A stretch of 64,000 bases of DNA from Betaproteobacteria bacterium (GTDB lineage Bacteria > Pseudomonadota > Gammaproteobacteria > Burkholderiales > JACQAP01): the NCBI GenBank assembly GCA_016194905.1, contig JACQAP010000026.1, forward strand, positions 28,418 to 92,417, in the 5' to 3' direction. The translations under genes were made by a program, and so were the position numbers. The number at the start of each line of letters is the position of its first letter. Positions within the stretch are counted from its first letter, which is position 1. The notes beneath the pieces are model-generated. The model made no database searches, had not been told where the DNA came from, and worked only from the letters and a program-made list of their open reading frames with translations. This document shows, piece by piece, positions 5,867 to 54,593 of the stretch.

Positions 5867-5868
5867 CG

Positions 5869-31668: not shown

Positions 31669-32151
31669 ATGAAGAGTTCCCCTGCAAGACGCGGTTATTT
31701 CGGCGCGATAGCGCTGGCCTGGCTCCTGGTCGGCGCGGCCCATGCCGCCGATCTGGTGCAGGTGAGGGAGCCTTGGGCAAAAGCCACGGTGCCGGGACAG
31801 AAGGTCGGCGGGGTCTACATGAAAATCGTTGCCCGCGAAAATCTGCACTTGACCGGCGCGAAGAGCGCGGTGGCGGAGACAGCGGAAGTGCATCAGATGA
31901 AAATGGAAAACGGCATGATGAGAATGCGGGCCGTGCCGTCCCTGGAGCTGCCTGCCGGCAAGACGGTCAAGCTCGAGCCGGGCGGTTATCACATCATGCT
32001 GTTCGACCTCAGGCAATCGCTGGTGGCCGGACAGAAACTGAAGTTGGAACTGACCGTCGAGGACGCGTCCAAACGCCCGCACCGGGTTGCGGTCGAAGTC
32101 GTCGTGCGCGATCGCGATGCGGGCCCCCCAGACGGGCACGATCACCACTGA
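31669..32151 (+). CDS. Periplasmic copper chaperone PCu(A)C (DUF461)
   Basis: 160 aa from ATG 31669, the last part of the long track ORF 30856..32151. It has a signal peptide and a Met/His-rich Cu(I) site: EVHQMKMENGMMRM ... GGYHIML. Confidence 0.85.
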   Translation: MKSSPARRGYFGAIALAWLLVGAAHAADLVQVREPWAKATVPGQKVGGVYMKIVARENLHLTGAKSAVAETAEVHQMKMENGMMRMRAVPSLELPAGKTVKLEPGGYHIMLFDLRQSLVAGQKLKLELTVEDASKRPHRVAVEVVVRDRDAGPPDGHDHH

Positions 32152-32154
32152 CCG

Positions 32155-32949
32155 CTAGCGGGCGATCAGCAACTCCGCGATCCAGCCTGCCTCGACCCAG
32201 CCGCGCAGCATGCCGGCGGCTCGCGCCGCGGCTTCCTCTTCGGCCACCCATTCGCACAACCCGGCGCAGATTTCGCCAAAGCCTGCTTGCGAAATCATGG
32301 CCTTCAGCGCCCAGGCTTCATCGGCTTCCAGCGACCGGAAGAACGGCGAGTGCTGCGTGCGCCAGACGGCCCAGGTTACCGGCTCATCAAAGGTTTCGGG
32401 CTCGAATGAACTGTCGTCGTTGTCGATTGCCTTCCAGATCGTGACCGCGTTGGTGCGCAACTCCAGCAAGCGTAAGGCCAGGTGGGGTTTGAAGCGAAGT
32501 TCCGCCCAGGCTTCCGGTGCCACGGCCGCAACCTCTTCAAAGCGCACTGCGTCTTCGTCCGGCGAATCGAACGCCTGTCCCAGCGACCACTCGAATTGGG
32601 CGAGCTCGGCCAGCACCGGATGTGCGGCGTAGCGCGGCGTGGAGCGCAGGAATTCCGCCAGCTTGCCGCCGAACCAGCGCACATTGCGAAACGTCGAGGG
32701 ATGCGCGGCGATGTAGTCGCCGGCGAGGGCGTCGAAAAGCTCGTCGCCCAGGTAAGCGTGCAGGACTTCGTAGTCGGTGCCGAGAACCTCGATCAGCCGC
32801 AGGCGATAGGCATTGCGGTAGATTCCCAGCCGCGTGTTGCGGAATTCCGCGGTGTCGCCTTCGATCTGGCTGTCGATGGCGCACCCGCCGGTCAGCACGT
32901 TGTCCTGGAAACGGGCTTCGGTGACGGCGAGCTGCTTCGGGCGAATCAT
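32155..32949 (-). CDS. DUF2063 protein (BufC-like partner of the MNIO enzyme), locus A
   Basis: 264 aa from ATG 32949, which overlaps the DUF692 stop (ATGA). ...[16 protein letters not shown]...[11 protein letters not shown]... matches the DUF2063 pattern. Confidence 0.85.
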
Positions 32950-33788
32950 GCAGCTGCTTTCGCTTGCAGGGTGTGCGCGGCAATCTCGCGCGCTCGGCCG
33001 AGCTCGGTCACCAGATCGGCCAGCGGCGGAATGTGGTCGTCGCGTTCGATCATGGTGGCGACGTTGCCGAAGCGGCGAACGGCGGTTGCGTACAGATCCC
33101 ACACAGGATCGACGATATCGGCATCGTGGGTATCGATGATGTGCGTGCCGCAGTGGCTGTGGCCGGCAAGGTGGATCTGCCGGACGCGCTCGACCGGGAT
33201 GCCGTTCAGGAACTCAAGGGCATCGAAACCGTGGTTGAACGCGCTGACGTAGATGTTGTTCACGTCCAGCAGCACGTGGCAGTCGGCGCGTCGTGCGATC
33301 TCGGATAGAAAATTCCATTCGCTCATCTCGGACCCGCGGAACGTCACGTAACTCGAAACGTTCTCGAGCAGGATCTGCCGGCCGAGGAAATCCTGCGCTT
33401 CGCGCACCCTGGCGGCGACATGCTCGACCGCTTCCTCGGTGTAAGGAATCGGGAACAGGTCGTGCAGATTCTTGCCGGCGACGCCGGTCCAGCAAAGATG
33501 ATCGGACACCCATGCCGGTTCCACGCGTTGCGCCAGCTGCTTCAGCGCCTTCAGGTAATCGCGGTCAAGGGGGTCGGTACTGCCGATCGAAAGCGACACC
33601 CCATGCAGCACCATCGGGTAGTCGGCGCGTATGCGATCGAGGAAATACAGGGGCTTGCCGCCAGGAACGAGGAAGTTCTCGCTGAGCGCTTCGAACCAGT
33701 CGACGCGCGGGCGGCTCTCGAGAATCGACTCGTAATGGTCGGTGCGCAGGCCCAGCCCGAATCCCAGTTCCGAATTCGTTGTCATCAA
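32946..33788 (-). CDS. DUF692 / UPF0276 multinuclear non-heme iron oxidase (MNIO; BufB/MbnB family), locus A
   Basis: 280 aa with [60 protein letters not shown] and IHLAGH, the hallmark DUF692 TIM-barrel motifs. Confidence 0.9.
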
Positions 33789-33809
33789 GAAACCATAGCC
33801 TTCACTTCA

Positions 33810-33842
33810 GTGCGGGAGTCCGGCGAACCGGACTTCCCGCAC
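33810..33842 (-). promoter_or_regulatory. Strong intercistronic stem-loop between the precursor gene and the MNIO gene (possible attenuator or mRNA-stabilising hairpin)
   Basis: gtgcgggagtccgg-cgaa-ccggacttcccgcac forms a 14-bp GC-rich stem with one bulge. The loop reads UUCG on the transcript strand. No U-tract follows. Confidence 0.55.
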
Positions 33843-33849
33843 TAAAGCA

Positions 33850-34104
33850 TTACGAGCGACCGGTAGCCTTTTTGCATTCATCCGGCGTGAGTGACACGAA
33901 GCCCTGGCCTTTGCAGGCGTTCTGGCCTTTGCAGGAACTGTTCGCGCTCTTGCACTCGCTCTGCCCCTTGCAGGAGTTGCCGCCATTGCAGGCGACCTTC
34001 GCCTCGGTCCCGCCGCCGCCGCTGCCCATGTTCGCACAACCCGTAATGAAAAGTGCAGCAGCGGAGGCCGCTACCGCCAAGCCTAAGATTTTCCTGCCTT
34101 CCAT
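33850..34104 (-). CDS. 6-Cys CKG-repeat RiPP precursor (bufferin BufA2-like), predicted lipoprotein
   Basis: 84 aa: MEGRKILGLAVAASAAALFITG|CANMGSGGGGTEAKVACNGGNSCKGQSECKSANSSCKGQNACKGQGFVSLTPDECKKATGRS. It has a lipobox (ITGC) and 6 core Cys spaced 5-5-6-5-12. It lies directly upstream of DUF692. Confidence 0.8.
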   Translation of the reverse strand: MEGRKILGLAVAASAAALFITGCANMGSGGGGTEAKVACNGGNSCKGQSECKSANSSCKGQNACKGQGFVSLTPDECKKATGRS

Positions 34105-34218
34105 GGTTCATTCCCCTTCCAATGTGATTGACGATCTGCCTGGTTACGGCCGTCGGTGCCTGCCGCAAGTGGAAGTACGCAACAACCGCACAATTGGATG
34201 TGGGCGAGGCCGAATTCC

Positions 34219-34410
34219 TTATTTATCCTCGCGGTCCTTGATCACCGGATGATTGCGAAAAGCCGTGCGCAGGAAGGAAATCTGTTGCTGGAAGTTCCTG
34301 CAGCCCTCGCAGGCTTTCAGGTGCACCGCCATCCGCCAACGCTCCAGCCAGCCGAGACGGCGATCCATGGAATGGGAAACCAGCTCGGAAACTTGCTTGC
34401 AGGTCAGCAT
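34219..34410 (-). CDS. Small zf-HC2 (ZAS-type) anti-sigma factor without a TM segment
   Basis: 63 aa. MLTCKQVSELVSHSMD... is the anti-sigma N-helix. HLKACEGC matches the H-x3-C-x2-C ZAS motif. It lies 43 nt downstream of the ECF sigma gene. Confidence 0.75.
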   Translation of the reverse strand: MLTCKQVSELVSHSMDRRLGWLERWRMAVHLKACEGCRNFQQQISFLRTAFRNHPVIKDREDK

Positions 34411-34453
34411 CGAGGTTGACGCGGGGCACGCACCGACGGAAAACGAAACGAGT

Positions 34454-35047
34454 TCATTTGACCGGACGGACCCGCTCTTCCGGGCCGAACCAGGCCACCT
34501 CGAGGCATTCCCGCAGACTCATCCGCGCACGGTAAAGAATCACCCAGCAATTGGTCGACGATATCCCCAGTTCCTGACAGATATCGCCCGTGTCCATGCC
34601 CATGAATTCGCGCATTGCAAATACGCGCGCCGTCTGCGCCGGCAACTGGGTGTTGCAGCGTTCGAACACTTCCCAGAAGCGCTTCTGCTCGAAACAGCGC
34701 TCGGGATCTTCCCACGTCGGCGGAAAGGTGTGCCAGTGGTCGGTGCGGGCCTGGTCGAAGAACTGGTCGGCGAACTCGCGTTCGTCTTCGCCGTCGGGCG
34801 CATCCGGTACCTGCGTCTCCCGCGACTGCTTGCGGAACAGATCGGTGATCTTGTGCTTCAGGATGCCGGTCAACCAGGTTTTGACCGAGGAGCGTCCGGC
34901 GTAACGATCGCCGCCTTCGATGGCGGCGAGCAGCGTTTCCTGCACGATATCCTCGGCGCGGTTGGCGTCCCGCACCTGCAGCAGGGCATAGCGGTAGAGA
35001 TAGGCGCGGTGTTCCTGGAGTTCACCGGGCCCGGTGCGTTCGGCCAT
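34454..35047 (-). CDS. ECF-type sigma-70 family RNA polymerase sigma factor
   Basis: 197 aa from ATG 35047; the track start at 35104 is a TTG. Region 2 reads YLYRYALLQVRDANRAEDIVQETLL. Region 4 reads RVFAMREFMGMDTGDICQELGISSTNCWVILYRARMSL. Confidence 0.85.
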   Translation of the reverse strand: MAERTGPGELQEHRAYLYRYALLQVRDANRAEDIVQETLLAAIEGGDRYAGRSSVKTWLTGILKHKITDLFRKQSRETQVPDAPDGEDEREFADQFFDQARTDHWHTFPPTWEDPERCFEQKRFWEVFERCNTQLPAQTARVFAMREFMGMDTGDICQELGISSTNCWVILYRARMSLRECLEVAWFGPEERVRPVK

Positions 35048-35136
35048 CTGAGATCCACTGGACTGGGAGGTCTTGAATCTAGTGATTTTGTCCCAAGAAC
35101 TCAAGTCTGGCGACCGACAGAGGCGTAAATGACGCT

Positions 35137-35212: not shown

Positions 35213-35635
35213 ATGGCAAATTTGACCCGATACAACCCCTTTGACGAAAGCGTCGACGATCTTTTCAGAGGCTTCTTCCTGCGCCCGATGGCGTCCGACA
35301 ACCCGCCAGCAGTCCAAGTACGCATGGATGTCGCGGAAGACGACGGTGCCTACACCGTGCATGCCGAGATTCCCGGGGTGAAAAAGGAAGACATCAACGT
35401 CACCATCGACGGCAATCAGGTGGCAATCACGGCTGAAGTAAAGCACAACAAGCAGGACAAGCAGGGCGAAAAGGTTCTGCGTTCCGAGCGTTTCTACGGG
35501 AAGGCCTATCGCGCCTTCAGGCTGGCGCAGGATGTGGATGAAGCTTCTGCGGAAGCCAAATACAACGAGGGCGTATTGGTGCTGAGGTTACCGAAGAAGG
35601 CAGTTGCATCCGCCAAAAAGCTCTCGATACAGTAA
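35213..35635 (+). CDS. Hsp20/alpha-crystallin family small heat-shock protein
   Basis: 140 aa with an alpha-crystallin domain (DV.ED...Y.V.AE.PGV.KEDI.V...GN.V.I.AE) and a C-terminal L.I motif. AGGAGA is the RBS. Confidence 0.9.
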   Translation: MANLTRYNPFDESVDDLFRGFFLRPMASDNPPAVQVRMDVAEDDGAYTVHAEIPGVKKEDINVTIDGNQVAITAEVKHNKQDKQGEKVLRSERFYGKAYRAFRLAQDVDEASAEAKYNEGVLVLRLPKKAVASAKKLSIQ

Positions 35636-35656
35636 TACCGGCAGTTGCTGCATCGT

Positions 35657-35679
35657 GGAGGGGCGATTGCCGCCCCTCC
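35657..35679. terminator. GC-rich hairpin between convergent genes (possible bidirectional terminator)
   Basis: ggaggggcg-attgc-cgcccctcc is a perfect 9-bp stem. There is no clear U-tract on either side. Confidence 0.4.
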
Positions 35680-35737
35680 AGTGCTCTCGATTCGAATCCG
35701 CCGGATTGGACCACGCCCGGATTGGATCACAGCCGCG

Positions 35738-36994
35738 TCAGTGCAAAACCGCCGAGGTGTTTTCCGGATGGAGCGCTTTCGGGAAACTGAGCCGTTCCCG
35801 CTCGAGGATTCTGCGCTCCAATTCAACAGCCGCGCGGATCGCAAAAATCTTCAGGATCGCCAGATGGGGGAGTTCCTGGCGCATTTCCTTTCCGTCCGCG
35901 CAGGCGATGTGCCCGATCACCCTGCCTTGCGTATCAATACAGGGTAATCCAAGATAACTTTCCCGGTCGAAGGTCTTTTCCAGAGGCCAGCGCGCCGCGA
36001 CGTTGCCCGGTACGAACACTTGCTTGCCTTGCTGTATGACGTCTTCGCAAGCGGTCCCGGTCAAATCGAACTCCACGCAATTCGCGAATCCGCCCAGGTT
36101 CCAGCGCGCAAGCATGCGCACCCGCGTGGCGGGATAGTTGCTGCATTCGCAGACGAACGCTTCCCGCACGCCCAGAACTTCCGCGAAGCGTTTTGTCAGT
36201 TCACGGAAGCATTCGTCGCCCGATAGCGTCGACAGGCCATCGGCCACTTCGAGCAATGCCTCCTGTACTTGTTTCCGCGCCGAAATGTCGGTATGCAATC
36301 CGACCATGCGATAGGCCCTGCCCGCGGCATTGCGCAGCGCTGCTCCTCGCGCAAGAATCCAGCGATAACGGCCATCGCGGTGGAGCAGGCGATGTTCGTT
36401 TTCGAACCGTACGGTCTTGCCTTGCAAGTGCGCATCCAGCTCGCCAACAACGCGGTCGACGTCCTGCGGATGCACGCGCGCGCGCCATTCCTCCATGCGA
36501 TCTCCCAGTTCGTGGTCGGCGTAGCCAAGCATGCTCTTCCAGCGCGGCGAGAAATAAACCGAGTCGGTGCGCAGGTTCCATTCCCACATACCGTCATCGG
36601 CGCCGCGCACCGCCAGAGCGTAGCGTTCCTCGCTTTCGCGCAACAGATCCTCGGCTTGCTCGCGCCGCCGGGTTTCATGCGAAAGCTGGTTGCGATTCTC
36701 GCTCAGCTTTTCCGACAGCGCGTGCAACGCCTGTGCGAGCGCCATCAACCCGCCGCCGGGAACCGGCTGGTCCAGTTCGAGCAGGGTTCTTTTCGCGCTT
36801 TCCGAAGCCTGTGACAAACGGATGCGCAGCCTGATGTGAATGGCGATCAATGCCGTCGAAACCAGGGCCAGCCACGGCCACAGATCCTGCGTCAGCGCGG
36901 CCGCGGAAAACGGACCGAACCTGGCGAGCAGCAGCAGTGCGGCGCCGAGCAGCGCGCCGGCGATAATCAGCAGCAGATGCAGGCGTGTGTTCAT
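35738..36994 (-). CDS. Membrane-anchored PAS + GAF-like sensor protein without a recognisable output domain (paralogue 1)
   Basis: 418 aa from ATG 36994. It has two N-terminal hydrophobic segments and a coiled linker. The PAS block reads ERYALAVRGADDGMWEWNL.TD..YFSPRWKSMLGY...H.LLHRDGRYRW. The C-terminal GAF-like block reads GYLGLPC.D..GRVIGHIAC. Confidence 0.75.
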   Translation of the reverse strand: MNTRLHLLLIIAGALLGAALLLLARFGPFSAAALTQDLWPWLALVSTALIAIHIRLRIRLSQASESAKRTLLELDQPVPGGGLMALAQALHALSEKLSENRNQLSHETRRREQAEDLLRESEERYALAVRGADDGMWEWNLRTDSVYFSPRWKSMLGYADHELGDRMEEWRARVHPQDVDRVVGELDAHLQGKTVRFENEHRLLHRDGRYRWILARGAALRNAAGRAYRMVGLHTDISARKQVQEALLEVADGLSTLSGDECFRELTKRFAEVLGVREAFVCECSNYPATRVRMLARWNLGGFANCVEFDLTGTACEDVIQQGKQVFVPGNVAARWPLEKTFDRESYLGLPCIDTQGRVIGHIACADGKEMRQELPHLAILKIFAIRAAVELERRILERERLSFPKALHPENTSAVLH

Positions 36995-37073
36995 GACTGG
37001 CCTTTCCGTGGCGGCGTTTCGCATCGACCGATGGACCGATCCGTCACGTTTGGTCGAACAGCCGGCGCGTTCC

Positions 37074-38228
37074 TTACGGGGTCCCGGCGGCCGTCGGAAA
37101 ACCGACGCGGCGCTCGCGCCCCAGCCATTGCCTCTCCATCTCCACCGATGCGCGTACCGCAAACAGCTTGAGAATGGCATGGTGCGGCAGCACCGGCTGC
37201 ATTTCGACGCGACTCTTGCAGGCGATGTGGCCAATGACCCTGCCTTTGGTATCCAGGCAGGGCAGGCCTAGATATCCCTCGGTGCCGTAGCGGCGTTCCT
37301 CCGGCCAGCGAGCGGTTGCGTGACGGGGCACGAATACGCTTCGCCCGCTCTGGATGACTTCCTGGCAGGGCGTGTTCGCCAGATCGAATTCCTCGCAGGC
37401 GGCGAATTTTCCCTCAATCCAGAAGGCGAGCATGCGCAACCTGTTCGTGGGGTAGTTGCTGCACTCGGTCAGAAAGGCTTCTTTCACGCCGATGAGATCG
37501 GCGAGTTTTCCGACCAGCGCCTGATAACACGCCTGCCCGGAAAGGTCGGCCAGCCCGTCGGCAACCTCCAGCAACACCTGCTGTACCTGGTGGCGCGACG
37601 CAATATCCGTGGTCAGGCCCAGCATGCGGTAAGGCGTGCCATTGGCATGGCGCACGGCCTGGGCGCGCACCAATACCCAGCGATACCGGCCGTCGCGATG
37701 GCGCAGACGGTGCTCGTTCTCGAAACGAACGCTGTGGCCCTGCAGATGCGCATCAACACCAGCCAGGGCGCGCTCGCGGTCCTCGGGATGAATGCGCGAA
37801 TGCCACTCGTCAATCCCGCCGCCTATCTCACATCCTTCATTGCCGAGCATGCTTTTCCATCGCGGCGAATAAAATACCGCGCCGGTTTTCAGGTTCCATT
37901 CCCACATGCCGTCGTTCCCGCCGCTTACGGCGAGGGCATAACGTTCCTCGGTTTCGCGCAGGTTCTCATTCAGCCGCCGGCGGCGGCTGACTTCTTCGGC
38001 GACACGGTCCTGCAAGCGGCCCGCCGCTGCATGCAGATCGTCCAGTCCACCGCGAATGGTCGCCAAAGCGTCGCCGCGCAACAGCGGAACGAGCCCGGCC
38101 GCCGCAACATAGTGGCTTGACTGGGCCGCCAATCGCCCGAGCCGCAATCGCAATATCAGATTAAACGCCAGCGTCAGCGACAATACGCTGACGCTGGCAA
38201 TGGCCGCTGTCACCCAGGCGAAACTCAT
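37074..38228 (-). CDS. Membrane-anchored PAS + GAF-like sensor protein without a recognisable output domain (paralogue 2)
   Basis: 384 aa from ATG 38228, which overlaps the histidine-kinase stop (ATGA). It is colinear with paralogue 1: ERYALAVSGGNDGMWEWNLKTG.VFYSPRWKSMLG, RHRDGRYRW, GYLGLPCLDTKGRVIGHIAC. Confidence 0.75.
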   Translation of the reverse strand: MSFAWVTAAIASVSVLSLTLAFNLILRLRLGRLAAQSSHYVAAAGLVPLLRGDALATIRGGLDDLHAAAGRLQDRVAEEVSRRRRLNENLRETEERYALAVSGGNDGMWEWNLKTGAVFYSPRWKSMLGNEGCEIGGGIDEWHSRIHPEDRERALAGVDAHLQGHSVRFENEHRLRHRDGRYRWVLVRAQAVRHANGTPYRMLGLTTDIASRHQVQQVLLEVADGLADLSGQACYQALVGKLADLIGVKEAFLTECSNYPTNRLRMLAFWIEGKFAACEEFDLANTPCQEVIQSGRSVFVPRHATARWPEERRYGTEGYLGLPCLDTKGRVIGHIACKSRVEMQPVLPHHAILKLFAVRASVEMERQWLGRERRVGFPTAAGTP

Positions 38229-39724
38229 GCCGCGCACTCGAGCGAACCGGACTGCGCCACGGGCAGCGTGAAGCGGAACTCGGTGCCGACTCCCGGGCGG
38301 CTGGCAACATCGATGCGGCTCTCATGCAGTTCGAGAATGCTCCTGGAGATGGCCAGACCCAGACCGGCATGCTCGCCGCGCGCGCGCTGATCGTCGTTGA
38401 CACGGTAAAAGCGATCGAAGATGTGCGGAATTTCCTCTTCAGGGATGCCGCAGCCCGAATCCGCGACTGCGACGACGGCGTGTTGGACATTCGATTTCAG
38501 ATCCAGGCTTACGCTGCCGCCGGCACTGGTATGCGCAATCGCGTTTCCGATCAGGTTTTCCAGCACACGTTCGATCAGGCCGATATCGGCGCACACGAAC
38601 GGCGGATTCCTCGGCAAGTTGACCGCCAGCTTTATTTGCTTCTGGTCCGCCCGGAGCTGGAATTTTTGCATGACATCCTGCATCAGTTCCGCGACGGGGA
38701 ATGCTTCGCGTGACAACTTGACCTCGCGCGCATCGAGCTTGGCAAGTTCGATCAGGTCGCCGATGAGCTTGGCGAGACGCTCGCCGCTGCGCGAAGCGAC
38801 AAGCAGATAGTGACGACGCTCCTCGTCGCTCAGGCTGCCGTCCTTGAGCAACAAGGTGTCCACATATCCCTGCAGCGACGCCAACGGCGTTTTCAGATCA
38901 TGGGATACGTTGGCGACCAGCTCGCGGCGCAGCACATCGTTGTGCGTGAGTTCGCGCACCTGGTCGACCATGCGGATCGACATCTCGCGAAAGGTGCCGG
39001 CCAGCCGGTCGATCTCGTCGGAGTTTTGCCCGGCGGCGGGTAGTTCGGCAACCGGCGCGGTTGAAAATTCGCCGCGCTGGAAATTCGCCATGACCTCGGC
39101 CAGGTGTTCCAGCCGGCGGGTCATGAATGCGAATATCAACATGCCGGTGAGCACGGCAAACAGGACGCCGACCGCGACTTCGCCCACCGTTACCCGCAGG
39201 ATGTAGCTACCGGCCAGGAGGCTGCCGATGCTGTCCTGTTCTTCGTTCGCAAGGATGACGTAGAGAAATCCACGACCGTCGTTTGGCCCCGGTATCGCCG
39301 CTGCCGAGAAAATCTTCCAGGTGCCGGGGTTGCGTGGATCGTTGCCCAGAATCGGCAGTCGGGCGTTGCCGGAGAGGAACCGACGGATGGGATCGAGTGC
39401 GACCTGCGCGAGCTTTACCTTGCCCGGTGCCGCCGAGTATTCGACCACGCGTCCTTCATTGTCCAGCAAATAGATCTCGATCGATGGATTGATCGCCATC
39501 TGCATGTCGAACAGGGATTTCAGGCGCGCCGAGTCGTAGCCTTCTGGCGTGATGAGCCGGTTCTGTTCGAGCAGATGATGCGCCAGTTTCTGGTTCAGCT
39601 TCTGGGTCGCCTCCTGGTTGTAGGCGACGAAGAAATGCAGAGTCGCCAGCACGAGCGCCGTGCCGACTGCGAGAAAAAGCAGCAGCAGGACGCCGGCAAG
39701 CTTGCTGTAAAGAGTGCGGAACAT
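38225..39724 (-). CDS. Sensor histidine kinase (periplasmic sensor domain, HAMP, HisKA, HATPase_c)
   Basis: 499 aa with two TM segments flanking a loop of about 150 aa. The H-box is VSHDLKTPLASLQGY, the N-box is LENLIGNAI, and the G-boxes are DSGCGI and GLGLAI. Confidence 0.9.
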   Translation of the reverse strand: MFRTLYSKLAGVLLLLFLAVGTALVLATLHFFVAYNQEATQKLNQKLAHHLLEQNRLITPEGYDSARLKSLFDMQMAINPSIEIYLLDNEGRVVEYSAAPGKVKLAQVALDPIRRFLSGNARLPILGNDPRNPGTWKIFSAAAIPGPNDGRGFLYVILANEEQDSIGSLLAGSYILRVTVGEVAVGVLFAVLTGMLIFAFMTRRLEHLAEVMANFQRGEFSTAPVAELPAAGQNSDEIDRLAGTFREMSIRMVDQVRELTHNDVLRRELVANVSHDLKTPLASLQGYVDTLLLKDGSLSDEERRHYLLVASRSGERLAKLIGDLIELAKLDAREVKLSREAFPVAELMQDVMQKFQLRADQKQIKLAVNLPRNPPFVCADIGLIERVLENLIGNAIAHTSAGGSVSLDLKSNVQHAVVAVADSGCGIPEEEIPHIFDRFYRVNDDQRARGEHAGLGLAISRSILELHESRIDVASRPGVGTEFRFTLPVAQSGSLECAA

Positions 39725-39749
39725 CAGCGAAGCGGTAAATCGTGAACAG

Positions 39750-40454
39750 TCACTGACGTTCAGCGAACTTGTAGCCCACTCCCCATACCGTCTGGATATA
39801 TTCGGGGTTCTGCGGGTCGCGTTCGATCTTGGCGCGCAAGCGGTTGATGTGCGAATTCACCGTGTGTTCATACCCACTGTGCTGGTATCCCCACACCTGG
39901 TCGAGCAATTGGTCGCGGGTGTACACCCGCCCCGGATGGCGGGCGAAATGCACGAGCAGGTCGAATTCGCGCGCAGTCAGCGTCACCGGTTTGCCGTCGA
40001 GCGCGACGCAGTGGCGCTCGAGATCCAGCGAGAGCGCTCCGGCACGGACCATGTTGCCCGCCTCTGCGATTCCGGCATTGGGGACTGCGCGCATGCGCCG
40101 CAGGATCGCTTTGACCCGTGCGGTGAGTTCGAGCACCGAAAACGGCTTGGTCAGGTAATCGTCGGCGCCCATTTCCAGACCCAGCACGCGGTCCAGTTCT
40201 GAAGATTTCGACGTCAGCATCAGGATCGGGGTGTAGGTACCCCGCCCACGCAACCGCCTGCAAACCTCCAGGCCGTCCAGGCCCGGCAGCTTGAGATCGA
40301 GGATGATCAGGTCGTAGTCCTTCGCTTCCGCTTCGGCCAGGCCGACGATGCCGTCGGCGGCGAGCTTTACCTGGCAGGGAAGGTCCTGCAAATGCAGCCT
40401 GACCAACTGGGAAATGTCTTGATCGTCTTCGATCACCAGTACGCTGTGCGTCAT
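39750..40454 (-). CDS. OmpR/PhoB-family response regulator (REC + winged-helix)
   Basis: 234 aa from ATG 40454. The REC domain shows VLVIEDD...DLIILDLKLPGLDG...PILMLTSK. The winged helix shows LTAREFDLLVHFARHPGRVYTRDQLLD.VWG...RTV..HI.RLR.KIE. Confidence 0.9.
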   Translation of the reverse strand: MTHSVLVIEDDQDISQLVRLHLQDLPCQVKLAADGIVGLAEAEAKDYDLIILDLKLPGLDGLEVCRRLRGRGTYTPILMLTSKSSELDRVLGLEMGADDYLTKPFSVLELTARVKAILRRMRAVPNAGIAEAGNMVRAGALSLDLERHCVALDGKPVTLTAREFDLLVHFARHPGRVYTRDQLLDQVWGYQHSGYEHTVNSHINRLRAKIERDPQNPEYIQTVWGVGYKFAERQ

Positions 40455-40539
40455 GTCCCCCGCGCTTTCATTGTATTGGTCCGGTTCGCCGTTTTGCCGG
40501 CTTTGCCTGATTGGTAGAAGCAAGCCCGGATTCCTTACA

Positions 40540-42747
40540 TTACATCGCCGCCGTTTCCAGCCGCGGCCGAGCGGGTGAGGTCGGGGCGGCCGCGATCAGC
40601 GGCGCGCCGGTGATCAGGCGCGTGCCGCTACGCAGGGTCAGATAGGCCCAGAACCAGTCGAACATCACCGACATCCGGTTGCGCACGCCTACCAGGAAGC
40701 CGACGTGCACCATGCCCCAGAGCCACCAGGCCCCGGCTCCGGACAAACGTACCGAACCGAAGTCGGCTACCGCCGCTTTGCGGCCGATGGTGGCCAGGCT
40801 GCCGAGATGGCGATAGCGGAAAGGTCGTGGCGGCGTTCGCCCGGCAATTCGCGAGCGGATTACCGATGCAACATACAAGCCGCCCTGCTTGGCGGCCGGC
40901 GCCAATCCAGGCACGGGTTGGCCATTCCACGCGGTCGAGTACGCCGTGTCACCGATGGCGAAGACTTCCGGCAGTCCGGTCACCGACAGGTCCGCGCCGA
41001 CCTTGATCCGGCCGGCGTTGTCGGCTTCCGTGCCCAGCCATGTTGCCGCGGGCGAGGCGACCACACCTGCCGCCCACAATACGGTGCGTGCGGCGACACG
41101 CTTGCTGTTCACAGTCACACCCAGCTCGTCTATGGTTTCCACCCGGCTGCCGGTCTGGACCTCAACGCCCAGATTCTCCAGCGAGCGTTTTGCATTCTCG
41201 GAAAGAGCTTGCGGAAATGTGGGCAGTATTCGCGGCGCCGCCTGCACCAGCACTACGCGCGCCGCCGCCGGGTCAAAGCGACGAAAGTCCTTGTCCATGC
41301 CGAAGCGCGCGAGTTCCGAAATTGCTCCGGCCAGTTCAACGCCGGTCGGTCCGCCGCCGACGATGAGAAACGTCAGCAAGGCACGGCGTTCCGATTCGTC
41401 TTCGCAGGCCTCCGCGCGCTCGAACGCGGTGAGCACACGCCTGCGTATGTCGGTTGCGTCTTCGATGCGCTTGAGCCCGGGCGCATGCGCCGCCCAGTCA
41501 TCACGGCCGAAATAACTATGCGAGGCACCGGTGCCCAGCACCAGGAAGTCGTAAGCAATCTGCAGATCACCGACCATGACCTTGCGCGCCGCGGTATCCA
41601 CGGCAGTCACCGTTCCGAGCAGCACCCGGGCGTTGAACTGCTCGCGGAACAATCCGCGCACTGGCGAGGCGATATCACCCGGCGCCAGACTTGCCGTGGC
41701 CACCTGGTACAACAGCGGCTGGAACAGGTGATAGTTGTTGCGGTCGATGAGCGTGACTTGCACCCTTGCCTGGCGCAGCGCCTGCGCGCACGCGAGCCCG
41801 CCGAAACCAGCGCCGACGATGACCACGCGCGGCAAGCCTTCGATGGAGAAGGCAGGCTTGCCGGCGAGTTGCGGGAACACGCCGCGCAGGCGCCTGTGGA
41901 GAAGGGCGTCCAGCGAAAGCGGCCCTGCGCCGAAAGCGAGGAACAGGCCGAGCGCCATTGCCCAACGCCAGTCCGGCCCAAGGCTCGGGTCCATCACGGT
42001 CAGTGCGATGGCCGCCGCAGCCAGCGCGATGGCGGTGAAACGGGTCGCGAAGCCGGTTGCCAGCAGCAATGCACAGGCAACTGCAATGCCTCTCGGCAGT
42101 TGCGGCGCGCTGGCAATCGGCAGCCAGTCCGCAACGGCAATGCCGGCGGCGGGCGATGCGTGGGCGGCAACGACAAGCGCCATGGCCAGCCAGGCTCGCA
42201 GCACCAGCTGATAGACGGGAAAGATGCGCCGCGTGATCCAGTCGAAAATCCGCACGATTCCCGCAGCGAACGGAATCGCGGTGTCGCCCGTCCCGCGCTT
42301 GAGCAGATGATCGAACGACAGCGGCCCGGCGCCGCGCAGCATGATCCACGCCAGCGATGCGGCCCACAACAATTGCGTGTCGAGCGCGCGGTAGCTGAAC
42401 TGGATCACGAGCGCCAGGGCCAGCATCGGAGCCGCCGCCAGGCGAGTCGCGAGTCCCGCCGCCAGCAACACCGAGCCCGCGAGTTCGACGACGACGCCGA
42501 AGACCGCAGCGGCTACGGGATCCAGCCATGAAACCGGATATTCGTTGGCCGACAGGTAGAGCGCAGTTTCCCAGCCGGTGATTTTCAGCAGGCCCGAAAC
42601 GAAGAATGCTTCCGCCACCCACAGCCGGATCGCGAGATCGAGCAGCGGACCGAACGAACGCTCGAGCGCGCGGAACGCGTCCGCGAATGCGGACATGAGA
42701 TTGCCGATCTGCGTGGAATGGACGCTTGCCGCTGCGCGTTTCATCAT
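40540..42747 (-). CDS. Fusion protein: two DoxX-like membrane domains + type II NADH:quinone oxidoreductase (NDH-2)
   Basis: About 735 aa; the start is ATG 42747 or 42744, behind AGGAG. Residues about 30-150 (LLDLAIRLWVAEAFFVSGLLKITGWETALYLSANEYP...GAGPLSFDHLLKR) are clearly paralogous to the stand-alone DoxX at 51953..52432. A second DoxX-like repeat follows (...GAGPLSLDALLHRRL). After that comes the NDH-2 part: RVVIVGAGFGGL..., FLIVGGGPTGVELAG, FAIGD. Confidence 0.85.
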   Translation of the reverse strand: MMKRAAASVHSTQIGNLMSAFADAFRALERSFGPLLDLAIRLWVAEAFFVSGLLKITGWETALYLSANEYPVSWLDPVAAAVFGVVVELAGSVLLAAGLATRLAAAPMLALALVIQFSYRALDTQLLWAASLAWIMLRGAGPLSFDHLLKRGTGDTAIPFAAGIVRIFDWITRRIFPVYQLVLRAWLAMALVVAAHASPAAGIAVADWLPIASAPQLPRGIAVACALLLATGFATRFTAIALAAAAIALTVMDPSLGPDWRWAMALGLFLAFGAGPLSLDALLHRRLRGVFPQLAGKPAFSIEGLPRVVIVGAGFGGLACAQALRQARVQVTLIDRNNYHLFQPLLYQVATASLAPGDIASPVRGLFREQFNARVLLGTVTAVDTAARKVMVGDLQIAYDFLVLGTGASHSYFGRDDWAAHAPGLKRIEDATDIRRRVLTAFERAEACEDESERRALLTFLIVGGGPTGVELAGAISELARFGMDKDFRRFDPAAARVVLVQAAPRILPTFPQALSENAKRSLENLGVEVQTGSRVETIDELGVTVNSKRVAARTVLWAAGVVASPAATWLGTEADNAGRIKVGADLSVTGLPEVFAIGDTAYSTAWNGQPVPGLAPAAKQGGLYVASVIRSRIAGRTPPRPFRYRHLGSLATIGRKAAVADFGSVRLSGAGAWWLWGMVHVGFLVGVRNRMSVMFDWFWAYLTLRSGTRLITGAPLIAAAPTSPARPRLETAAM

Positions 42748-42775
42748 GACTCCTGGATCTGCCGGCATGCCGCGT

Positions 42776-43579
42776 TCATGCGGCTGCAGGCGACTGGTGC
42801 GCGCGATAGCGGCACGGGAATATGCACCTGCTGTCGTTTTCGTGGTGCAGTTTGCAGCACAGCACGGCGCTCCTGCCGCGGGTCATCAGATAGAGTTCCG
42901 CCGCGATCAGCATGCCGGCCACCGGCGCCAGGAAGTAGATCCACGCATCGGTCCAGACCCGTGCCGGCAGGGCGGACGCGAAGGTGCGCGCCGGGTTCAT
43001 GCTCATTCCGGACAGCGGTGCCTCGAAGACGATGAACAATGCAACCAGCACTCCGGCGAACAGGCCGGTGTAGCGATTCAGCGCCGGCCTGTTCGATACC
43101 GTCAGCACCGTGAACATGAGGCCGCCGGAAATGAGTGCCTCGGCGAGAAAAGCCGGCCAGCGGCCGGCCATTCCCGGCACGGTGACGGCGTAGTTCACGG
43201 CCGCGTCGGCAATGACCGCGGTGCCGAACAGGAATGAAAACAGCACGACGCCGGCGGTGCCGCCGGCAAACTGGAACAGTGTGTAGAACATCGCGTCGCG
43301 CGTGTGGATTCTTCCCAGCCGCCAGAACGTCGCCGTGACGGCCGGATTCAGGTGCGCGCCGGAACGCTTGCCCAGCGGTGAATAGATCAGGCCGATCGCC
43401 GTCAGCCCCATGGCCAGCGCGATCAGCGCGCGCCGCGTGAACGGGTCCGGTACCGCCTGCCTGGCGAACGAGGCGGGATGCTCCAGCAAGGCGGTGAAGG
43501 CGCAGGCCGACAGCATGAACAGCCCGAGACCGAGCGCTTCGAGGAAATATTCCGGCCAGTGGTAGTCCCCGGACTTCAC
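42776..43579 (-). CDS. MIP-family channel (aquaporin/aquaglyceroporin-like)
   Basis: 267 aa from GTG 43579, which overlaps the upstream stop (GTGA). It has two NPA boxes (HLNPAVT and MNPARTF) and six hydrophobic segments. Confidence 0.85.
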   Translation of the reverse strand: MKSGDYHWPEYFLEALGLGLFMLSACAFTALLEHPASFARQAVPDPFTRRALIALAMGLTAIGLIYSPLGKRSGAHLNPAVTATFWRLGRIHTRDAMFYTLFQFAGGTAGVVLFSFLFGTAVIADAAVNYAVTVPGMAGRWPAFLAEALISGGLMFTVLTVSNRPALNRYTGLFAGVLVALFIVFEAPLSGMSMNPARTFASALPARVWTDAWIYFLAPVAGMLIAAELYLMTRGRSAVLCCKLHHENDSRCIFPCRYRAHQSPAAA

Positions 43580-46299
43580 GCGACCGCCTTCTTCCTCGTC
43601 GCCCGGGCTGCGGGCTGCTGTGCCTGCTGCTGACGCCAGTAGCTCGGGATGTCGGCGCGGTAGCGGCGCTGCACCAGGTTGGCGACCAGTCCGGTCCACC
43701 CGGTCTGATGCATCGCGCCCAGGCCGAGACCGTTTTCGCCGTGGAAATATTCGTTGAACAGCAACAGGTCTTTCCAGGCCGGGTCGGTCTGAAACGGACT
43801 GTTCCCGGGCAATGCGGGAATGCGTCCGTCGGGTCCGCGGCGAAAGATGTTCACCAGCCGGTCCGAGAGCAGCTTGGAGATCTCGTTGAGGTTCATTTCC
43901 CGGTCGCCCAGGCAGGGCGCGCGCACCTTGAAGCCGTCGCCGAGAAAGCGGTAGTAGCGCTCGATGGCCTGCACCAGCACGTAATTGGTCGGCATCCAGA
44001 TCGGCCCGCGCCAGTTGGAATTGCCGCCGAACAGGCCGGAGTTGGATTCGCCCGGCACGTACTCGATGAGCGCGCGGCCGACGCCCTGGATGACGCCAAG
44101 GTCGCGGCGTTCAGCGTGCACGCGCGACACGGCGCGCACGCCATAGTTCGACAGGAACTCGTTCTCGGACAGCAGGTGCTTGAGGATGGCCCGCAGTTTT
44201 TCGGCGTCGACCAATGCCAGCAGGTGTTCGCCGCGGGCATTGGTCTTGGTCGGGCACTCGGAAACGTAGTGGCCGTCGAACAGCCCGTAGCGATGCGCCT
44301 TCATCACCGCTTCGAAGCGCGGTGCCGCCTTGAGCAGACGCTGATCGACGATTTCGCAGGCGAACAACGGAATCAGACCGACCCAGGAAAACACGTCGAT
44401 GCGCTGCGCACTGCCGTCCGGCCCCACCACTACGTCCTTGAAGAAGCCGTCCTGTTCGTCCCACAGTGATATGCCCATGCCGCTGCCGCCGGCGATGGTG
44501 TTGGCGATGCCGAGGAACTGCAGATAACACTGGATGGCAAGATCTTCGTAGTCTGAATCGGAGGCCGCCAGTTCCAGGCACAGCATGGTCATGTTCAATG
44601 CGAACATCGCCATCCAGCCGGTCGCGTCGGCTTGTTTGAGGCTGAACCCGGCGGGCAGCGGCTGTGAACGGTCGTACACCGAAATGTTGTCCAGTCCGAG
44701 GAAACCACCTTCGAACACGTTGTTGCCGTCGGCGTCCTTGCGATTGAGCCACCAGGTGTAGTTCATCAGGAACTTGTGGGTCACGCGTTGCAGGAAGCCG
44801 ATGTCGCCTTCGCCGCGCTGCACCCTCTCGGCGCGAAAAGCTTTCAGCGCGGCCATCGCCAGCACCGGCGGATTGACGTCGTCGAAGGACCACTCGTACG
44901 CCGGAATCTGGCCGTTGGGGTGCAGGAAGTGTTCGGTGAGCAGCAGTTCGATCTGCTGCTTGGCGAAATCCACGTCGACCAGCGCCAATGCGCCGCAATG
45001 AAAAGCCAGGTCCCAGGCGGCGAACCACGGGTATTCCCATTTGTCCGGCATGGACACGACATGCGCGGCCTTCATGTGGCGCCAGCGGCGATTGCGTCCG
45101 ACCTTGCGGTTCGCGGGCGGCGGCAATTGATCTCCATCCTGCCAGCGCGCGACATCGAAGTGGAAGAACTGCTTGCTCCAGATCATGCCCGCCAGCGACT
45201 GGCGCAGTATGTTCATGTCCTGGGTGTCGCCCTCGGGCAGCAGCTGGTCATAGAACACCGTGGCTTCCGCCTCGCGTTTCGCGAAGGTGACTTCGCGCTT
45301 GCCGAAAGGATCGACGAGCGGCTGGCGCGACAATGTCATGCCGATGGTCGCCGAGTGACCGGGCTCGAGCGTAACGACATGCCAGGCGCCGAACTTGGTG
45401 CCGGACAGTTCCGGGTTGACCGCGGCTTGCTCGGCATTGACGACGCGACGGTGGAATGCGTCTTTCACGTAAGGCGTTGTGCCGGAAACATTCCAAAGGC
45501 GCTCGGCATTGCTCTCGTTTTCCGTGTAAAGCACCTGCGCGGGGTGCCGGCCATAAAGATGGTAAGTGCCCAGCGTGGGGTGGTCGGCTTGCACCGCCCA
45601 CCGGGCGCCCATGGGCACCGCGATATCCCGTAGCACGGGTTTGTCCACCGGATCGCCCCAGGACCAGTCGTTGCGAAACCATAACTGCGGCAGCAGGTGC
45701 AGCGGTGCGGCCTCCGGTCCGTGATTGGTGGCGATGATCCGGATGTGAATCTCGTCCGGTCCGGCCTTCGCATAACGGACTTCGACATCGAAGTAACGGC
45801 TGTCTTCGAACACGCCGGTGTCCAGCAGATTGAACGGCGGTTCCTGTCTGGAGCGACGCGCGTTTTCCCGCACCAGCCATCCGTACGGATACTCCGCCTG
45901 CGGATATTTGTAGAGATAGCGCATCCAGCTGTGGCTGGGCGTGGCGTCGAGGTAGAAGTAGAACTCCTTGACGTCCTCGCCGTGATTGCCCTGGTTTCCG
46001 GTCAGGCCGAACATGCGCTCCTTGAGGATGGGATCCTTGCCGTTCCATATGGCGAGCGCGAAGCACAGGCGCTGATGCTCGTCGCAAATGCCCCCGAGGC
46101 CATCCTCGTTCCAGCGATAGGCGCGACTTCTCGACTGATCGTGATCGAAATACTCCCAGGCGGTGCCGCCTGCACTGTAATCCTCGCGCACCGTGCCCCA
46201 GGCGCGTTCGGCAAGGTAAGGCCCCCATAGCCGCCAGTCCTCGCGGCCTTCGTGTTGCGCCTCCAGTCGTTGCCGTTCCGCGTTCAGCGTTGCGTTCAT
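43576..46299 (-). CDS. Large (alpha/alpha)6-barrel glycoside hydrolase, GH63/MGH1-like ('glucosidase' family)
   Basis: 907 aa. The N-terminus WRLWGPYLAERAWGTVREDYS..GTAWEYF.HD.SRSRAYRWNEDGLGGICD matches proteins I recall as annotated MGH1-like/GH63-like glucosidases. The substrate is unknown. Confidence 0.6.
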   Translation of the reverse strand: MNATLNAERQRLEAQHEGREDWRLWGPYLAERAWGTVREDYSAGGTAWEYFDHDQSRSRAYRWNEDGLGGICDEHQRLCFALAIWNGKDPILKERMFGLTGNQGNHGEDVKEFYFYLDATPSHSWMRYLYKYPQAEYPYGWLVRENARRSRQEPPFNLLDTGVFEDSRYFDVEVRYAKAGPDEIHIRIIATNHGPEAAPLHLLPQLWFRNDWSWGDPVDKPVLRDIAVPMGARWAVQADHPTLGTYHLYGRHPAQVLYTENESNAERLWNVSGTTPYVKDAFHRRVVNAEQAAVNPELSGTKFGAWHVVTLEPGHSATIGMTLSRQPLVDPFGKREVTFAKREAEATVFYDQLLPEGDTQDMNILRQSLAGMIWSKQFFHFDVARWQDGDQLPPPANRKVGRNRRWRHMKAAHVVSMPDKWEYPWFAAWDLAFHCGALALVDVDFAKQQIELLLTEHFLHPNGQIPAYEWSFDDVNPPVLAMAALKAFRAERVQRGEGDIGFLQRVTHKFLMNYTWWLNRKDADGNNVFEGGFLGLDNISVYDRSQPLPAGFSLKQADATGWMAMFALNMTMLCLELAASDSDYEDLAIQCYLQFLGIANTIAGGSGMGISLWDEQDGFFKDVVVGPDGSAQRIDVFSWVGLIPLFACEIVDQRLLKAAPRFEAVMKAHRYGLFDGHYVSECPTKTNARGEHLLALVDAEKLRAILKHLLSENEFLSNYGVRAVSRVHAERRDLGVIQGVGRALIEYVPGESNSGLFGGNSNWRGPIWMPTNYVLVQAIERYYRFLGDGFKVRAPCLGDREMNLNEISKLLSDRLVNIFRRGPDGRIPALPGNSPFQTDPAWKDLLLFNEYFHGENGLGLGAMHQTGWTGLVANLVQRRYRADIPSYWRQQQAQQPAARATRKKAVA

Positions 46300-46326
46300 G
46301 GTTTCGCTCCAAATAGAAAATTGTTA

Positions 46327-46489
46327 GCCACAAAGGACACCCACCTCTCCCCATCCCTCTCCCCCCGCAAGCGGGCGGAGAGGGTGTCGGATACAGAGGA
46401 AGTCACGCTCGCATCACTGCCTTTGGCTCCCTCTCCACGTAAGCGGAGAGGGCGGGGGGTGAGGTGCCTTTCTCTGTGTCCTCTGTGGC
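46327..46489. repeat. REP/MITE-like imperfect palindromic element (about 163 bp) with two CCCTCTCC...GGAGAGGG hairpins
   Basis: The termini are GCCACAAAGGACAC (46327-46340) and its near-perfect inverse gtgtcctctgtggc (46476-46489). Internal hairpins lie at 46355-46384 and 46429-46452. The stop codon of the debranching-enzyme ORF (46403-46405) lies inside the element. Confidence 0.6.
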
Positions 46490-48508: not shown

Positions 48509-48534
48509 GATGTCGTCTCCTCTGAAGTTCCGCA

Positions 48535-50025: not shown

Positions 50026-51074
50026 GGTTGAACCAGCAATACGGCGTGGCCGTCGGGATCGCGGACCATGAGTTGTCTGCGGTATGGCTGGTCTTTCACT
50101 TCCACGGCGCGAGGCGATATGAAGCGGACGTCCGCGTGCTGCAACTTGGCGACCAACTCGTCGAGGTCGTCCACCTCGATGACCGTCCGGGTGGCGACCA
50201 GATCGTTGACTCCGGCATCCGCGGGCGTCGAACGTCCGCCGCCGGGCGTGAGGTACTGCAGAAACTCCACACCGGGGCCGCTTGCGTCCCGCGGGCGCAA
50301 TCCCGTTACGCGTACTACCGCACCGAAGGCGTTATCGAGCTGCTCCTGGGTTTCGCCCGAGTTCAGGCTTGCGCCGACCACAACTAGGCCAAGCAAATCG
50401 CGGTAGAAAGCGAAACTGCGATCGGTACTGGAAACGGTTATGGCGGAGTGGTCGATCCCGAGAAACAGCGCGTCGTCGCGATGCCATCTGGCCGGGCCCT
50501 TGTCCGGCGGCAAATAGAGCAGCTCCAGCGGATGGCCGTCGAAGTCGCGGAACTTGAAAGCCTTGACGCCAGCCGCTGCCTTGTTCCACTCGGGTAGGGT
50601 CTGCGGGGCGCTGGAAATCGCCTGAATCGGAAAGCGCGAGACATGCTCATAGGCCTTCTGCATGTCCGATACCACGACCGCAAAATGCTGGAACCAGAGG
50701 TCGTTGGCGCGGCTGTCGACCGGGACCGGCTTGCCGGCGGGTCCGAGATACTGGTCGAGCTCGATCGTTTCATCGCCGAGCTGCAACGACGCCGTTCGCA
50801 CGCGGGTGCCGAAAACACCGGTGACATAGTCGTAGTCGCGATCCGCAGTCGTACGTTCGCCGGTCTTGCGGAATCCGAGCGCCTGCTCGAAAAACGCGAC
50901 CGAGCGGTCAAGATCGGAAACCGTCAGCACGAAGCCCTTCACTTCGCGGGCACCGGCAAAGGCGCTGCCGGCCAGCAGGATCAGCGACACTGCCGCGAGC
51001 AGCGCGAAAGTGTGCAGCCATTCGCGCCAGGCGCGCGATTGCTGCGCCTGTACCGTGGTTTGCGCGAGGCTCAT
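50022..51074 (-). CDS. Two-domain VOC (glyoxalase/bleomycin-resistance/dioxygenase) family protein with an N-terminal signal or anchor
   Basis: 350 aa from ATG 51074. A hydrophobic N-segment (FALLAAVSLILLAGSAFA) is followed by two VOC repeats (F.LTVSDLDRSV.FF...LGF; IDHSAITVS..DRS.AFY...LGL). Confidence 0.7.
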   Translation of the reverse strand: MSLAQTTVQAQQSRAWREWLHTFALLAAVSLILLAGSAFAGAREVKGFVLTVSDLDRSVAFFEQALGFRKTGERTTADRDYDYVTGVFGTRVRTASLQLGDETIELDQYLGPAGKPVPVDSRANDLWFQHFAVVVSDMQKAYEHVSRFPIQAISSAPQTLPEWNKAAAGVKAFKFRDFDGHPLELLYLPPDKGPARWHRDDALFLGIDHSAITVSSTDRSFAFYRDLLGLVVVGASLNSGETQEQLDNAFGAVVRVTGLRPRDASGPGVEFLQYLTPGGGRSTPADAGVNDLVATRTVIEVDDLDELVAKLQHADVRFISPRAVEVKDQPYRRQLMVRDPDGHAVLLVQP

Positions 51075-51076
51075 GA

Positions 51077-51916: not shown

Positions 51917-51952
51917 GGCTGCATTCCTTCTGGTAGCGTGACGCCAGCCGGA

Positions 51953-52432: not shown

Positions 52433-52456
52433 GTGTTGCCTCCTTTGCCCGGATAG

Positions 52457-52485
52457 TCCCTCTCCGCGTCGCCGCCGGAGAGGGA
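52457..52485. repeat. Third copy of the CCCTCTCC/GGAGAGGG hairpin, intercistronic between the DUF2282 precursor and DoxX
   Basis: tccctctcc-gcgtcgccgcc-ggagaggga forms a 9-bp stem. Its core is the same as the two hairpins in the 46.3-46.5 kb element. Confidence 0.6.
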
Positions 52486-52500
52486 TCGAAGCAGCGTTGT

Positions 52501-54592: not shown

Positions 54593-54593
54593 G

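Follow-up and report, generated by a model that had tools for sequence, protein, structure and literature searches.

Which kind of gene cluster is formed when an extracytoplasmic function (ECF) sigma factor, its anti-sigma factor, a small cysteine-rich peptide, a DUF692 protein and a DUF2063 protein are encoded in a row, and which sigma factor transcribes it? The question is raised by a 64,000-nucleotide stretch of a Betaproteobacteria bacterium of the Burkholderiales (assembly GCA_016194905.1, contig JACQAP010000026.1, positions 28,418 to 92,417), which we call the window. On its minus strand lie, in this order, the genes of the sigma factor (34454..35047), of a 63-aa anti-sigma factor (34219..34410), of an 84-aa peptide (33850..34104), of the DUF692 protein (32946..33788) and of the DUF2063 protein (32155..32949). 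An earlier inspection of the letters made without database searches (the sequence-only reading) had listed these five genes, and all are present in the order and at the coordinates it gave. We conclude, with a probability of about 0.78, that the locus is a bufA2-bufB-bufC operon of the bufferin-2 ("captophorin") type, with a predicted lipid anchor on the precursor peptide, an ECF-type promoter and no requirement for DoxX.

The bufferin-2 operon

Copper-chelating peptides called bufferins form a large family that has been recognised recently. The 84-aa peptide is identified as a bufferin-2 precursor, BufA2, by the model NF050166 (78.7 bits, cutoff 60, residues 9-83) and is 100% identical to a protein from a Betaproteobacteria metagenome-assembled genome, in which the proteins of the window have identical counterparts. 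Its six core cysteines at positions 39, 45, 51, 58, 64 and 77 are invariant in an alignment of 49 homologous sequences. The sequence-only reading had placed them in CKG-type repeats with a spacing of 5-5-6-5-12; the spacing is correct, the literal CKG is found at only three of the six (Cys45, Cys58 and Cys64). The invariance of these cysteines, together with the retention of a further cysteine in the signal peptide of 82 of the 120 best homologues (see below), lifts the feature beyond chance.

The DUF692 protein is the MNIO-type bufferin maturase BufB. It scores 392 bits with NF050167 (cutoff 310) and 380 bits with Pfam MbnB_TglH_ChrH, and its nearest solved structure is the DUF692 protein 3BWW (E = 9e-54). 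The partner protein BufC matches Pfam DUF2063 with 72.4 bits (cutoff 27.2) and the NCBIfam HvfC model with 37 bits, under the cutoff of 142. A sequence search of the PDB returned no match for BufC or for the anti-sigma factor. The stop codon of bufB and the start codon of bufC share the sequence ATGA, an overlap that had been noticed before and lies at positions 32946-32949. With precursor and maturase above the cutoffs of their curated models, the proposed assignment to the second, six-cysteine bufferin family holds, and as far as the sequence can tell the cluster is a Buf2 member carrying every defining feature that can be tested.

Between bufA2 and bufB, directly after the bufA2 stop codon, the minus strand can form a large stem–loop (33804..33848) with a folding energy of -36.7 kcal/mol (z = -6.7) which is not followed by a T-tract. 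Stable hairpins of differing sequence are found at the same site in most orthologous loci. The hairpin probably sets the ratio of precursor to enzyme.

For the chemistry we rely on the Caulobacter peptide. In Caulobacter Buf2 the first and the sixth cysteine remain unmodified and the four central cysteines lose 4.03 Da each (PMC11626156). We infer the conversion of cysteine to 5-thiooxazole and the binding of copper from what is reported for bufferins (PMC11626156, PMC13097082). In the cytoplasm BufB and BufC would thus oxidise the central Cys45, Cys51, Cys58 and Cys64 to 5-thiooxazoles, and a disulfide would form between Cys39 and Cys77.

DoxX

The sequence-only reading had remarked that no DoxX gene follows the DUF2063 gene, and this is confirmed, as a PCuAC gene is found there instead. 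We compared the locus with its relatives, whose context was taken from look-ups of exact proteins and from one metagenome scan; a scan of the genome collection with the sigma protein gave two loci only, one of them irrelevant. Within the sequence available for each locus the syntenic relatives have no DoxX homologue, and the bufA2BC operon is kept without DoxX in every syntenic locus fetched. Among 80 dereplicated BufA2 loci, a mixed set of close relatives and a metagenome sample, few have DoxX nearby. The founding Caulobacter buf2 operon also lacks DoxX, and deletion of doxX left Buf1 maturation and copper protection unchanged (PMC11626156). It is therefore unnecessary to assume, as had been proposed, that DoxX is supplied in trans by the DoxX-like gene at 51953..52432 or by a fusion of DoxX with a type-2 NADH dehydrogenase (NDH-2); both genes are real. 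Nor is the presence of DoxX among the features that define Buf2.

The probable promoter of bufA2

The alignment of the upstream regions reveals two invariant blocks, CATCC and CGTA, which are always 16 nt apart. In the window CATCC-N16-CGTA has a single exact match (34176..34200, minus strand), situated some 70 nt upstream of the bufA2 start codon, in the gap that separates this gene from the anti-sigma gene. Orthologous loci have the motif in the same position, whether or not they contain the sigma gene; locus L019 carries the variant AATCC. Of the 80 BufA2 loci, 28 carry the shortened form ATCC-N16-CGTA at a distance of no more than 300 nt upstream, the background frequency being 0.0034 per 300 nt (binomial P ~2e-48, not corrected for relatedness). 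In L012 the motif also stands before a DoxX gene, and in L013/L014 before a second BufA2 gene. We are confident that bufA2BC has a promoter of the ECF type, most probably this conserved site.

The window reads CACATCC-N16-CGTAC and the relatives mostly GCATCC-N16-CGTA[CT]. The ECF18 consensus that PMC13492112 lists after the ECF Hub is xGCATCC / xxCGTATx and agrees with these sequences; the RpoE/ChrR type TGATCC-N16-CGTA (PMC5507510) is close to them. The base preceding CATCC (A or G) does not co-vary with the presence of a sigma gene in cis. Since a scan between the anti-sigma gene and bufA2 gave no terminator-like site, basal read-through into bufA2 is possible.

Two other motifs were considered and rejected. 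The Caulobacter SigF motif GTAACC-N16-CGAA begins as expected with GTAACC at 34142-34147, but ACAT stands 16 nt further on, and the motif is upstream of only one of the 80 BufA2 genes. The Neisseria sigmaE motif is mismatched in spacing to a conserved GTAACC...CGTCAAT block, which we read as 5′ untranslated region.

In L013 (region 8360..10346) and in L014 the second BufA2 gene (100.6 bits) is accompanied by genes for a SigK-like ECF sigma factor and an RskA_C anti-sigma factor. This BufA2 gene is preceded by ATGCATCC-N16-CGTA and converges on a lipoprotein-type bufA2BC operon with the same motif.

The sigma/anti-sigma pair

The sigma factor (197 aa) carries regions 2 and 4 only (Pfam Sigma70_r2 and r4_2) and scores 238.7 bits with the NCBIfam profile TIGR02943 (cutoff 162.2), which places it in the TIGR02943 family. 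The anti-sigma factor matches zf-HC2 (33 bits) and NF052368 (70.5 bits, cutoff 50). Its Cys4, His30, Cys34 and Cys37, that is, an H-x3-C-x2-C motif with an upstream cysteine, are invariant in six lineages and coincide in position with those of Neisseria meningitidis MseR (PMC2893595), and no hydrophobic segment is visible. Judged from these features it is a soluble, cytoplasmic zinc-binding anti-sigma (ZAS) protein of the MseR/HrsE kind, and the pair is group 13-like in its make-up. Direct sensing of periplasmic metal by such a protein is therefore unlikely.

In at least six lineages the sigma/ZAS genes lie 114 bp upstream of bufA2 and in the same direction, and sigma orthologues at the same syntenic site are 68-91% identical. 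The pair is present in the window, L007, L008, L015, L017/18, L019/20 and one further contig, with sigma identity down to 68%. Both genes are gone in L001-L006 and in L021, whose BufB is 96% identical to that of the window; in L021 the homology to the window ends at 35131 and restarts at 34203, just 3 nt before the promoter motif. L009-L011 (about 5457..5873) retain only fragments of the sigma gene, a pseudogene with an internal deletion in which window positions 34963-34575 have no counterpart. The anti-sigma open reading frame of these loci is intact with all four zinc/thiol ligands, and so is the bufA2 promoter; the decay of the sigma gene thus leaves an orphan anti-sigma factor. Conversely, L101-L103 (for example L101 4500..9048) have a 59% identical sigma gene and a 75-aa ZAS anti-sigma gene beside Hsp20 and no bufferin operon. 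The genes that follow in L101-L103 code for a PAS protein, a histidine kinase and a response regulator which are 52-72% identical to the products of the window genes at 35738..40523; in the window these genes have the opposite orientation and flank Hsp20 from the other side. This distribution indicates that the linkage of the pair to bufA2 is frequent, yet that either module can exist alone. The linkage is probably ancestral.

The sigma/ZAS genes appear to use a housekeeping-type promoter of their own. A candidate read from the sequence, TTGAGT-N17-TAGATT (35076..35104, minus strand), is conserved in the window, L008, L015 and L101, and a remnant is seen in the sigma-less L001. Since a sigma-70 consensus scanner found no site in the region 31.5-35.7 kb, the candidate lies below the threshold and is tentative, with its conservation as the argument for it.

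Which sigma factor reads the promoter?

The chance that the adjacent sigma factor contributes to bufA2 transcription is, in our estimate, close to even. The TIGR02943 sigma could act once it is freed by oxidation or metallation of the cytoplasmic zinc/thiol anti-sigma factor. If the anti-sigma factor is the switch, the pair would sense a perturbation of zinc or thiols in the cytoplasm and not periplasmic metal directly.

Alternatively, the pair may be a mere syntenic neighbour tied to Hsp20, and transcription of bufA2BC may depend on an ECF18/19-type sigma from another part of the genome (SigK/RpoP-like and paired with a membrane-bound RskA-type anti-sigma factor) which would sense an envelope signal. 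We consider this a serious alternative, though its odds are somewhat below even. Several observations that favour it weigh against our own reading of the locus. The bufA2 promoter motif is perfect in lineages without a functional sigma gene in cis, be it deleted (L001-L006, L021) or a pseudogene (L009-L011). The sigma/ZAS pair persists in L101-L103 beside Hsp20, where operon and motif are both absent. The motif equals the ECF18 consensus (PMC13492112), and in L013/L014 a SigK-like sigma with an RskA-type anti-sigma adjoins two motif-bearing BufA2 genes; this sigma is 21% identical to that of the window. Furthermore, no copy of the motif is found upstream of the sigma gene, even with one mismatch allowed, so that autoregulation through the motif is not seen. 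Two points of a general kind limit our reading of the locus as a whole: modification, lipidation, copper binding and induction are all deduced here, and AlphaFold models the precursor with low confidence (mean pLDDT 58, predicted local distance difference test), too poorly for a fold search.

On the other hand, no ECF18-type sigma is encoded within the 64-kb window, and the co-directional placement of the pair just upstream of bufA2 recurs in the six or more lineages named above. In Neisseria and Haemophilus it is proven that ECF pairs with a small ZAS protein regulate MNIO clusters (PMC2893595, PMC7907618). Finally, ECF groups with ATCC/CGTA promoters are said to cross-talk (PMC13492112). The physical linkage of sigma and anti-sigma genes to the operon, which the sequence-only reading had pointed out, is thus confirmed, and a regulatory link is possible. 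Its further claim, that metal stress induces the operon through the adjacent sigma, is not established, as the promoter survives the loss of the sigma gene and the pair occurs without the operon.

Both sigma factors might also be at work. Under such a two-layer ECF control of the lipid-anchored Buf2 of Burkholderiales, the ECF18-like promoter would be read by an envelope-sensing sigma in trans and by the TIGR02943 sigma in cis, the latter held by the cytoplasmic zinc/thiol anti-sigma factor. The cis cassette would be a population-level polymorphism that is repeatedly deleted just upstream of the -35 element. Whether the periplasmic chelator is induced by cytoplasmic thiol or copper stress as well would be tuned in this way, and the scheme would amount to an undescribed regulatory variant, as the published surveys report no sigma genes in Buf2 clusters. 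We put this forward as a rather unlikely, speculative scheme.

Copper or another stress?

The operon could also serve a stress other than copper (oxidants, hypochlorous acid or other thiophilic metals), copper binding being incidental. The ZAS class of anti-sigma factors responds to oxidative and thiol stress in Haemophilus (PMC7907618), MerC-Buf2 fusions suggest other metals for some bufferins (PMC12452194), and the divergent Hsp20 gene has a heat-shock-type promoter. However, both Caulobacter bufferins are induced by copper and protect against copper (PMC11626156), and the conserved convergent neighbour of the operon is the gene of a PCuAC copper chaperone. We consider a role outside copper improbable.

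The predicted lipid anchor

The signal peptide of BufA2 (34036..34104, minus strand) reads MEGRK-ILGLAVAASAAALFITG↓C23, the arrow marking the predicted cleavage site. It consists of a basic n-region, a hydrophobic core of 15 residues and a lipobox, and satisfies the PROSITE-type rule, the pattern [LVI][ASTVI][GAS]C being matched by I-T-G-C23. The lipobox LFITG↓C had been spotted by the sequence-only reading; it is real and conserved across the homologue clade. In the 82 homologues mentioned above the cysteine is found at residues 21-29, down to about 50% identity, and the linker of 8-17 residues that follows varies freely from homologue to homologue, in sequence as well as length, which is what a tether would do. 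A lipobox is present in 17 of the 80 BufA2 loci, the other 63 having ordinary signal peptides; of the roughly 74 precursors that could be read in the metagenome sample alone, 7 had one. BufA2 proteins at a greater distance carry signal peptides of the ordinary kind. These numbers stand beside a published estimate that ~16% of the Buf2 precursors are predicted lipoproteins (PMC12452194) and a 2026 paper on lipidated MNIO peptides which counts bufferins among the predicted lipoproteins of the ribosomally synthesised and post-translationally modified peptide (RiPP) class (PMC13056109). One close relative of the precursor (L024/P0052) has a tyrosine in place of the lipobox cysteine (…FTAGYMGS…); the anchor has been lost naturally in this relative, or the sequence is in error.

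From its conserved lipobox the precursor is very probably a lipoprotein. The peptide would be exported by Sec, diacylglycerylated on Cys23 and cut by signal peptidase II. The product would be a lipopeptide of 62 residues in which the variable Gly/Ser-rich linker tethers the copper-chelating domain to the periplasmic face of a membrane; the alanine at position +2 would direct it to the outer membrane under the sorting rule of E. coli. That Cys23 belongs instead to an ordinary Sec signal or is an extra substrate cysteine, so that maturation yields a soluble periplasmic peptide as with Caulobacter Buf2, has very little probability: the prevailing ordinary signal peptides of BufA2 homologues and the tyrosine of L024/P0052 speak for it, but the [LFM]x[TAS]G↓C context with its basic n-region and hydrophobic core suits the lipobox rule, the cysteine is kept next to a linker free to vary, no suitably placed A-x-A site is found, and signal peptidase II signals are predicted for a subset of Buf2 (PMC12452194, PMC13056109).

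Significance

In most respects this is an ordinary member of the bufferin-2 family in its already reported lipoprotein form; earlier papers cover the chemistry, a subset with lipobox and operons without DoxX. A survey found sigma genes in Buf1 clusters and none in Buf2 clusters (PMC12452194), so the sigma/ZAS genes directly upstream of bufA2 in a Burkholderiales clade are a small addition. The same holds for the promoter motif CATCC-N16-CGTA, which is simple and could serve to find bufferin regulons. In the literature reviewed apparently no lipid-anchored bufferin has been characterised experimentally. The locus and its natural sigma-plus and sigma-minus relatives offer a clean test system for the control of a periplasmic metallophore by a cytoplasmic ZAS protein.

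Neighbouring genes and the second bufferin cluster

Downstream, the operon converges with the gene of the PCuAC copper chaperone (31669..32151, plus strand; Pfam PCuAC, 123 bits). With only 3 bp between the two stop codons (window 32149..32157) a terminator has no space there, and the transcripts of both genes must therefore overlap. The PCuAC gene adjoins bufC in every syntenic locus whose sequence extends that far. We regard it as a syntenic neighbour of bufC; membership in the operon is a possibility. Upstream lies the divergent Hsp20 gene (35213..35635, plus strand; Pfam HSP20, 71.6 bits) with an RpoH (sigma-32)-like promoter CTTGAAA-N14-CTCATATAG read from the sequence at about 35137-35166 (plus strand). 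Both loci that have the ECF sigma and loci that lack it conserve this motif, suggesting that Hsp20 belongs to the heat-shock genes and not to the targets of the ECF sigma. The order of genes in the syntenic Burkholderiales is S41 protease, ThiF, TetR/SlmA, HAD, argB and Hsp20, then bufA2BC and PCuAC, then dacC, aminotransferase, DUF493, lipB and lipA. Rfam and tRNA scans of the 64-kb window were empty.

In every syntenic relative argB abuts Hsp20, and in the window the two are separated by about 22.5 kb (35636..58133) that the relatives do not have. The segment codes for two PAS-GAF proteins, a histidine kinase, an OmpR-type regulator, the DoxX-NDH-2 fusion, an aquaporin, GH63-like and glycogen-debranching enzymes, a GMC oxidoreductase, a glyoxalase and an SDR protein, and carries no tRNA gene according to the scan. 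The fusion (40540..42768, minus strand) has 742 aa, with an N-terminal DoxX part and a type-2 NADH dehydrogenase (Pyr_redox_2 and NDH2_C); this DoxX part and the separate DoxX-like protein encoded at 51953..52432 share 39% identity.

The segment also holds a second bufferin cluster (51953..57955, minus strand) of unusual layout. It begins with the paralogue at 57701..57955, a BufA2 (79.9 bits) with a Sec-type signal peptide ending before ADE and without lipobox cysteine, as the sequence-only reading had stated. In tandem follows a four-cysteine BufA1-like gene (about 57314..57610), and then GlcG-like and SMP-30-like genes, a gap of ~500 bp, BufB (398 bits), DUF2063 and the DoxX-like gene. The motif CATCC-N16-CGTA is not found in this cluster.

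Comparison with known systems

The gigPABT-rpoQ-rsqA cluster of Cupriavidus metallidurans, to which the locus had been likened, is indeed a copper- and gold-induced bufferin cluster beside an ECF sigma gene in a betaproteobacterium. However, it is of the Buf1 type, with a four-cysteine DUF2282 precursor and DoxX (GigT), and its ECF16 sigma is divergent and paired with a membrane anti-sigma factor; the cluster is thus a looser analogue than was implied (PMC10304878). The dependence of gig on RpoQ has not been demonstrated (PMC10304878, PMC13492112).

With the lipidated MNIO RiPPs (DybA, chryseobasin-like) and the bufferins predicted to be lipoproteins, the precursor shares a lipoprotein leader whose lipobox cysteine is separate from the modified cysteines. 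Lipidation of an MNIO RiPP has been demonstrated experimentally (PMC13056109). DybA differs in being a Bacteroidota peptide with macrocycle and hydantoin whose triacylation was shown by experiment, whereas the lipidation of bufferins is predicted.

The sigma/ZAS pair resembles sigmaE-MseR of Neisseria (NMB2140-2145, gonophorin) and RpoE2-HrsE of Haemophilus. These also consist of an ECF sigma and a cytoplasmic ZAS protein of ~63-67 aa with Cys4, His30, Cys34 and Cys37, and they are linked physically or functionally to an MNIO-DUF2063 peptide cluster; in the window the link is physical. The Neisseria order is DoxX, precursor, MNIO, DUF2063, sigma and anti-sigma, the precursor is not a BufA2, and a single autoregulated promoter GTMAGBWTT-N12-13-CGTCTAAH serves the cluster (PMC2893595), unlike the operon described here with its BufA2, its different motif and no DoxX.

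The closest known system is the buf2 operon of Caulobacter vibrioides (CCNA_02999-03001; BUF_6/12Cys). Common to both are the order bufA-bufB-bufC without DoxX, the six-cysteine precursor with an N-terminal Sec-type signal and the curated models BufA2 and BufB, as well as control by an ECF sigma, which is probable for the operon described here. In Caulobacter, SigF/NrsF is encoded elsewhere and the promoter is GTAACC-N16-CGAA (PMC3511200), whereas here the motif is CATCC-N16-CGTA, and directly upstream of the operon lie the genes of a TIGR02943 sigma and of its small ZAS anti-sigma. Unlike the Caulobacter precursor, the one described here has a lipobox and is predicted to be cut by signal peptidase II. 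By analogy, the operon would work like Caulobacter Buf2 save for its predicted lipid anchor.

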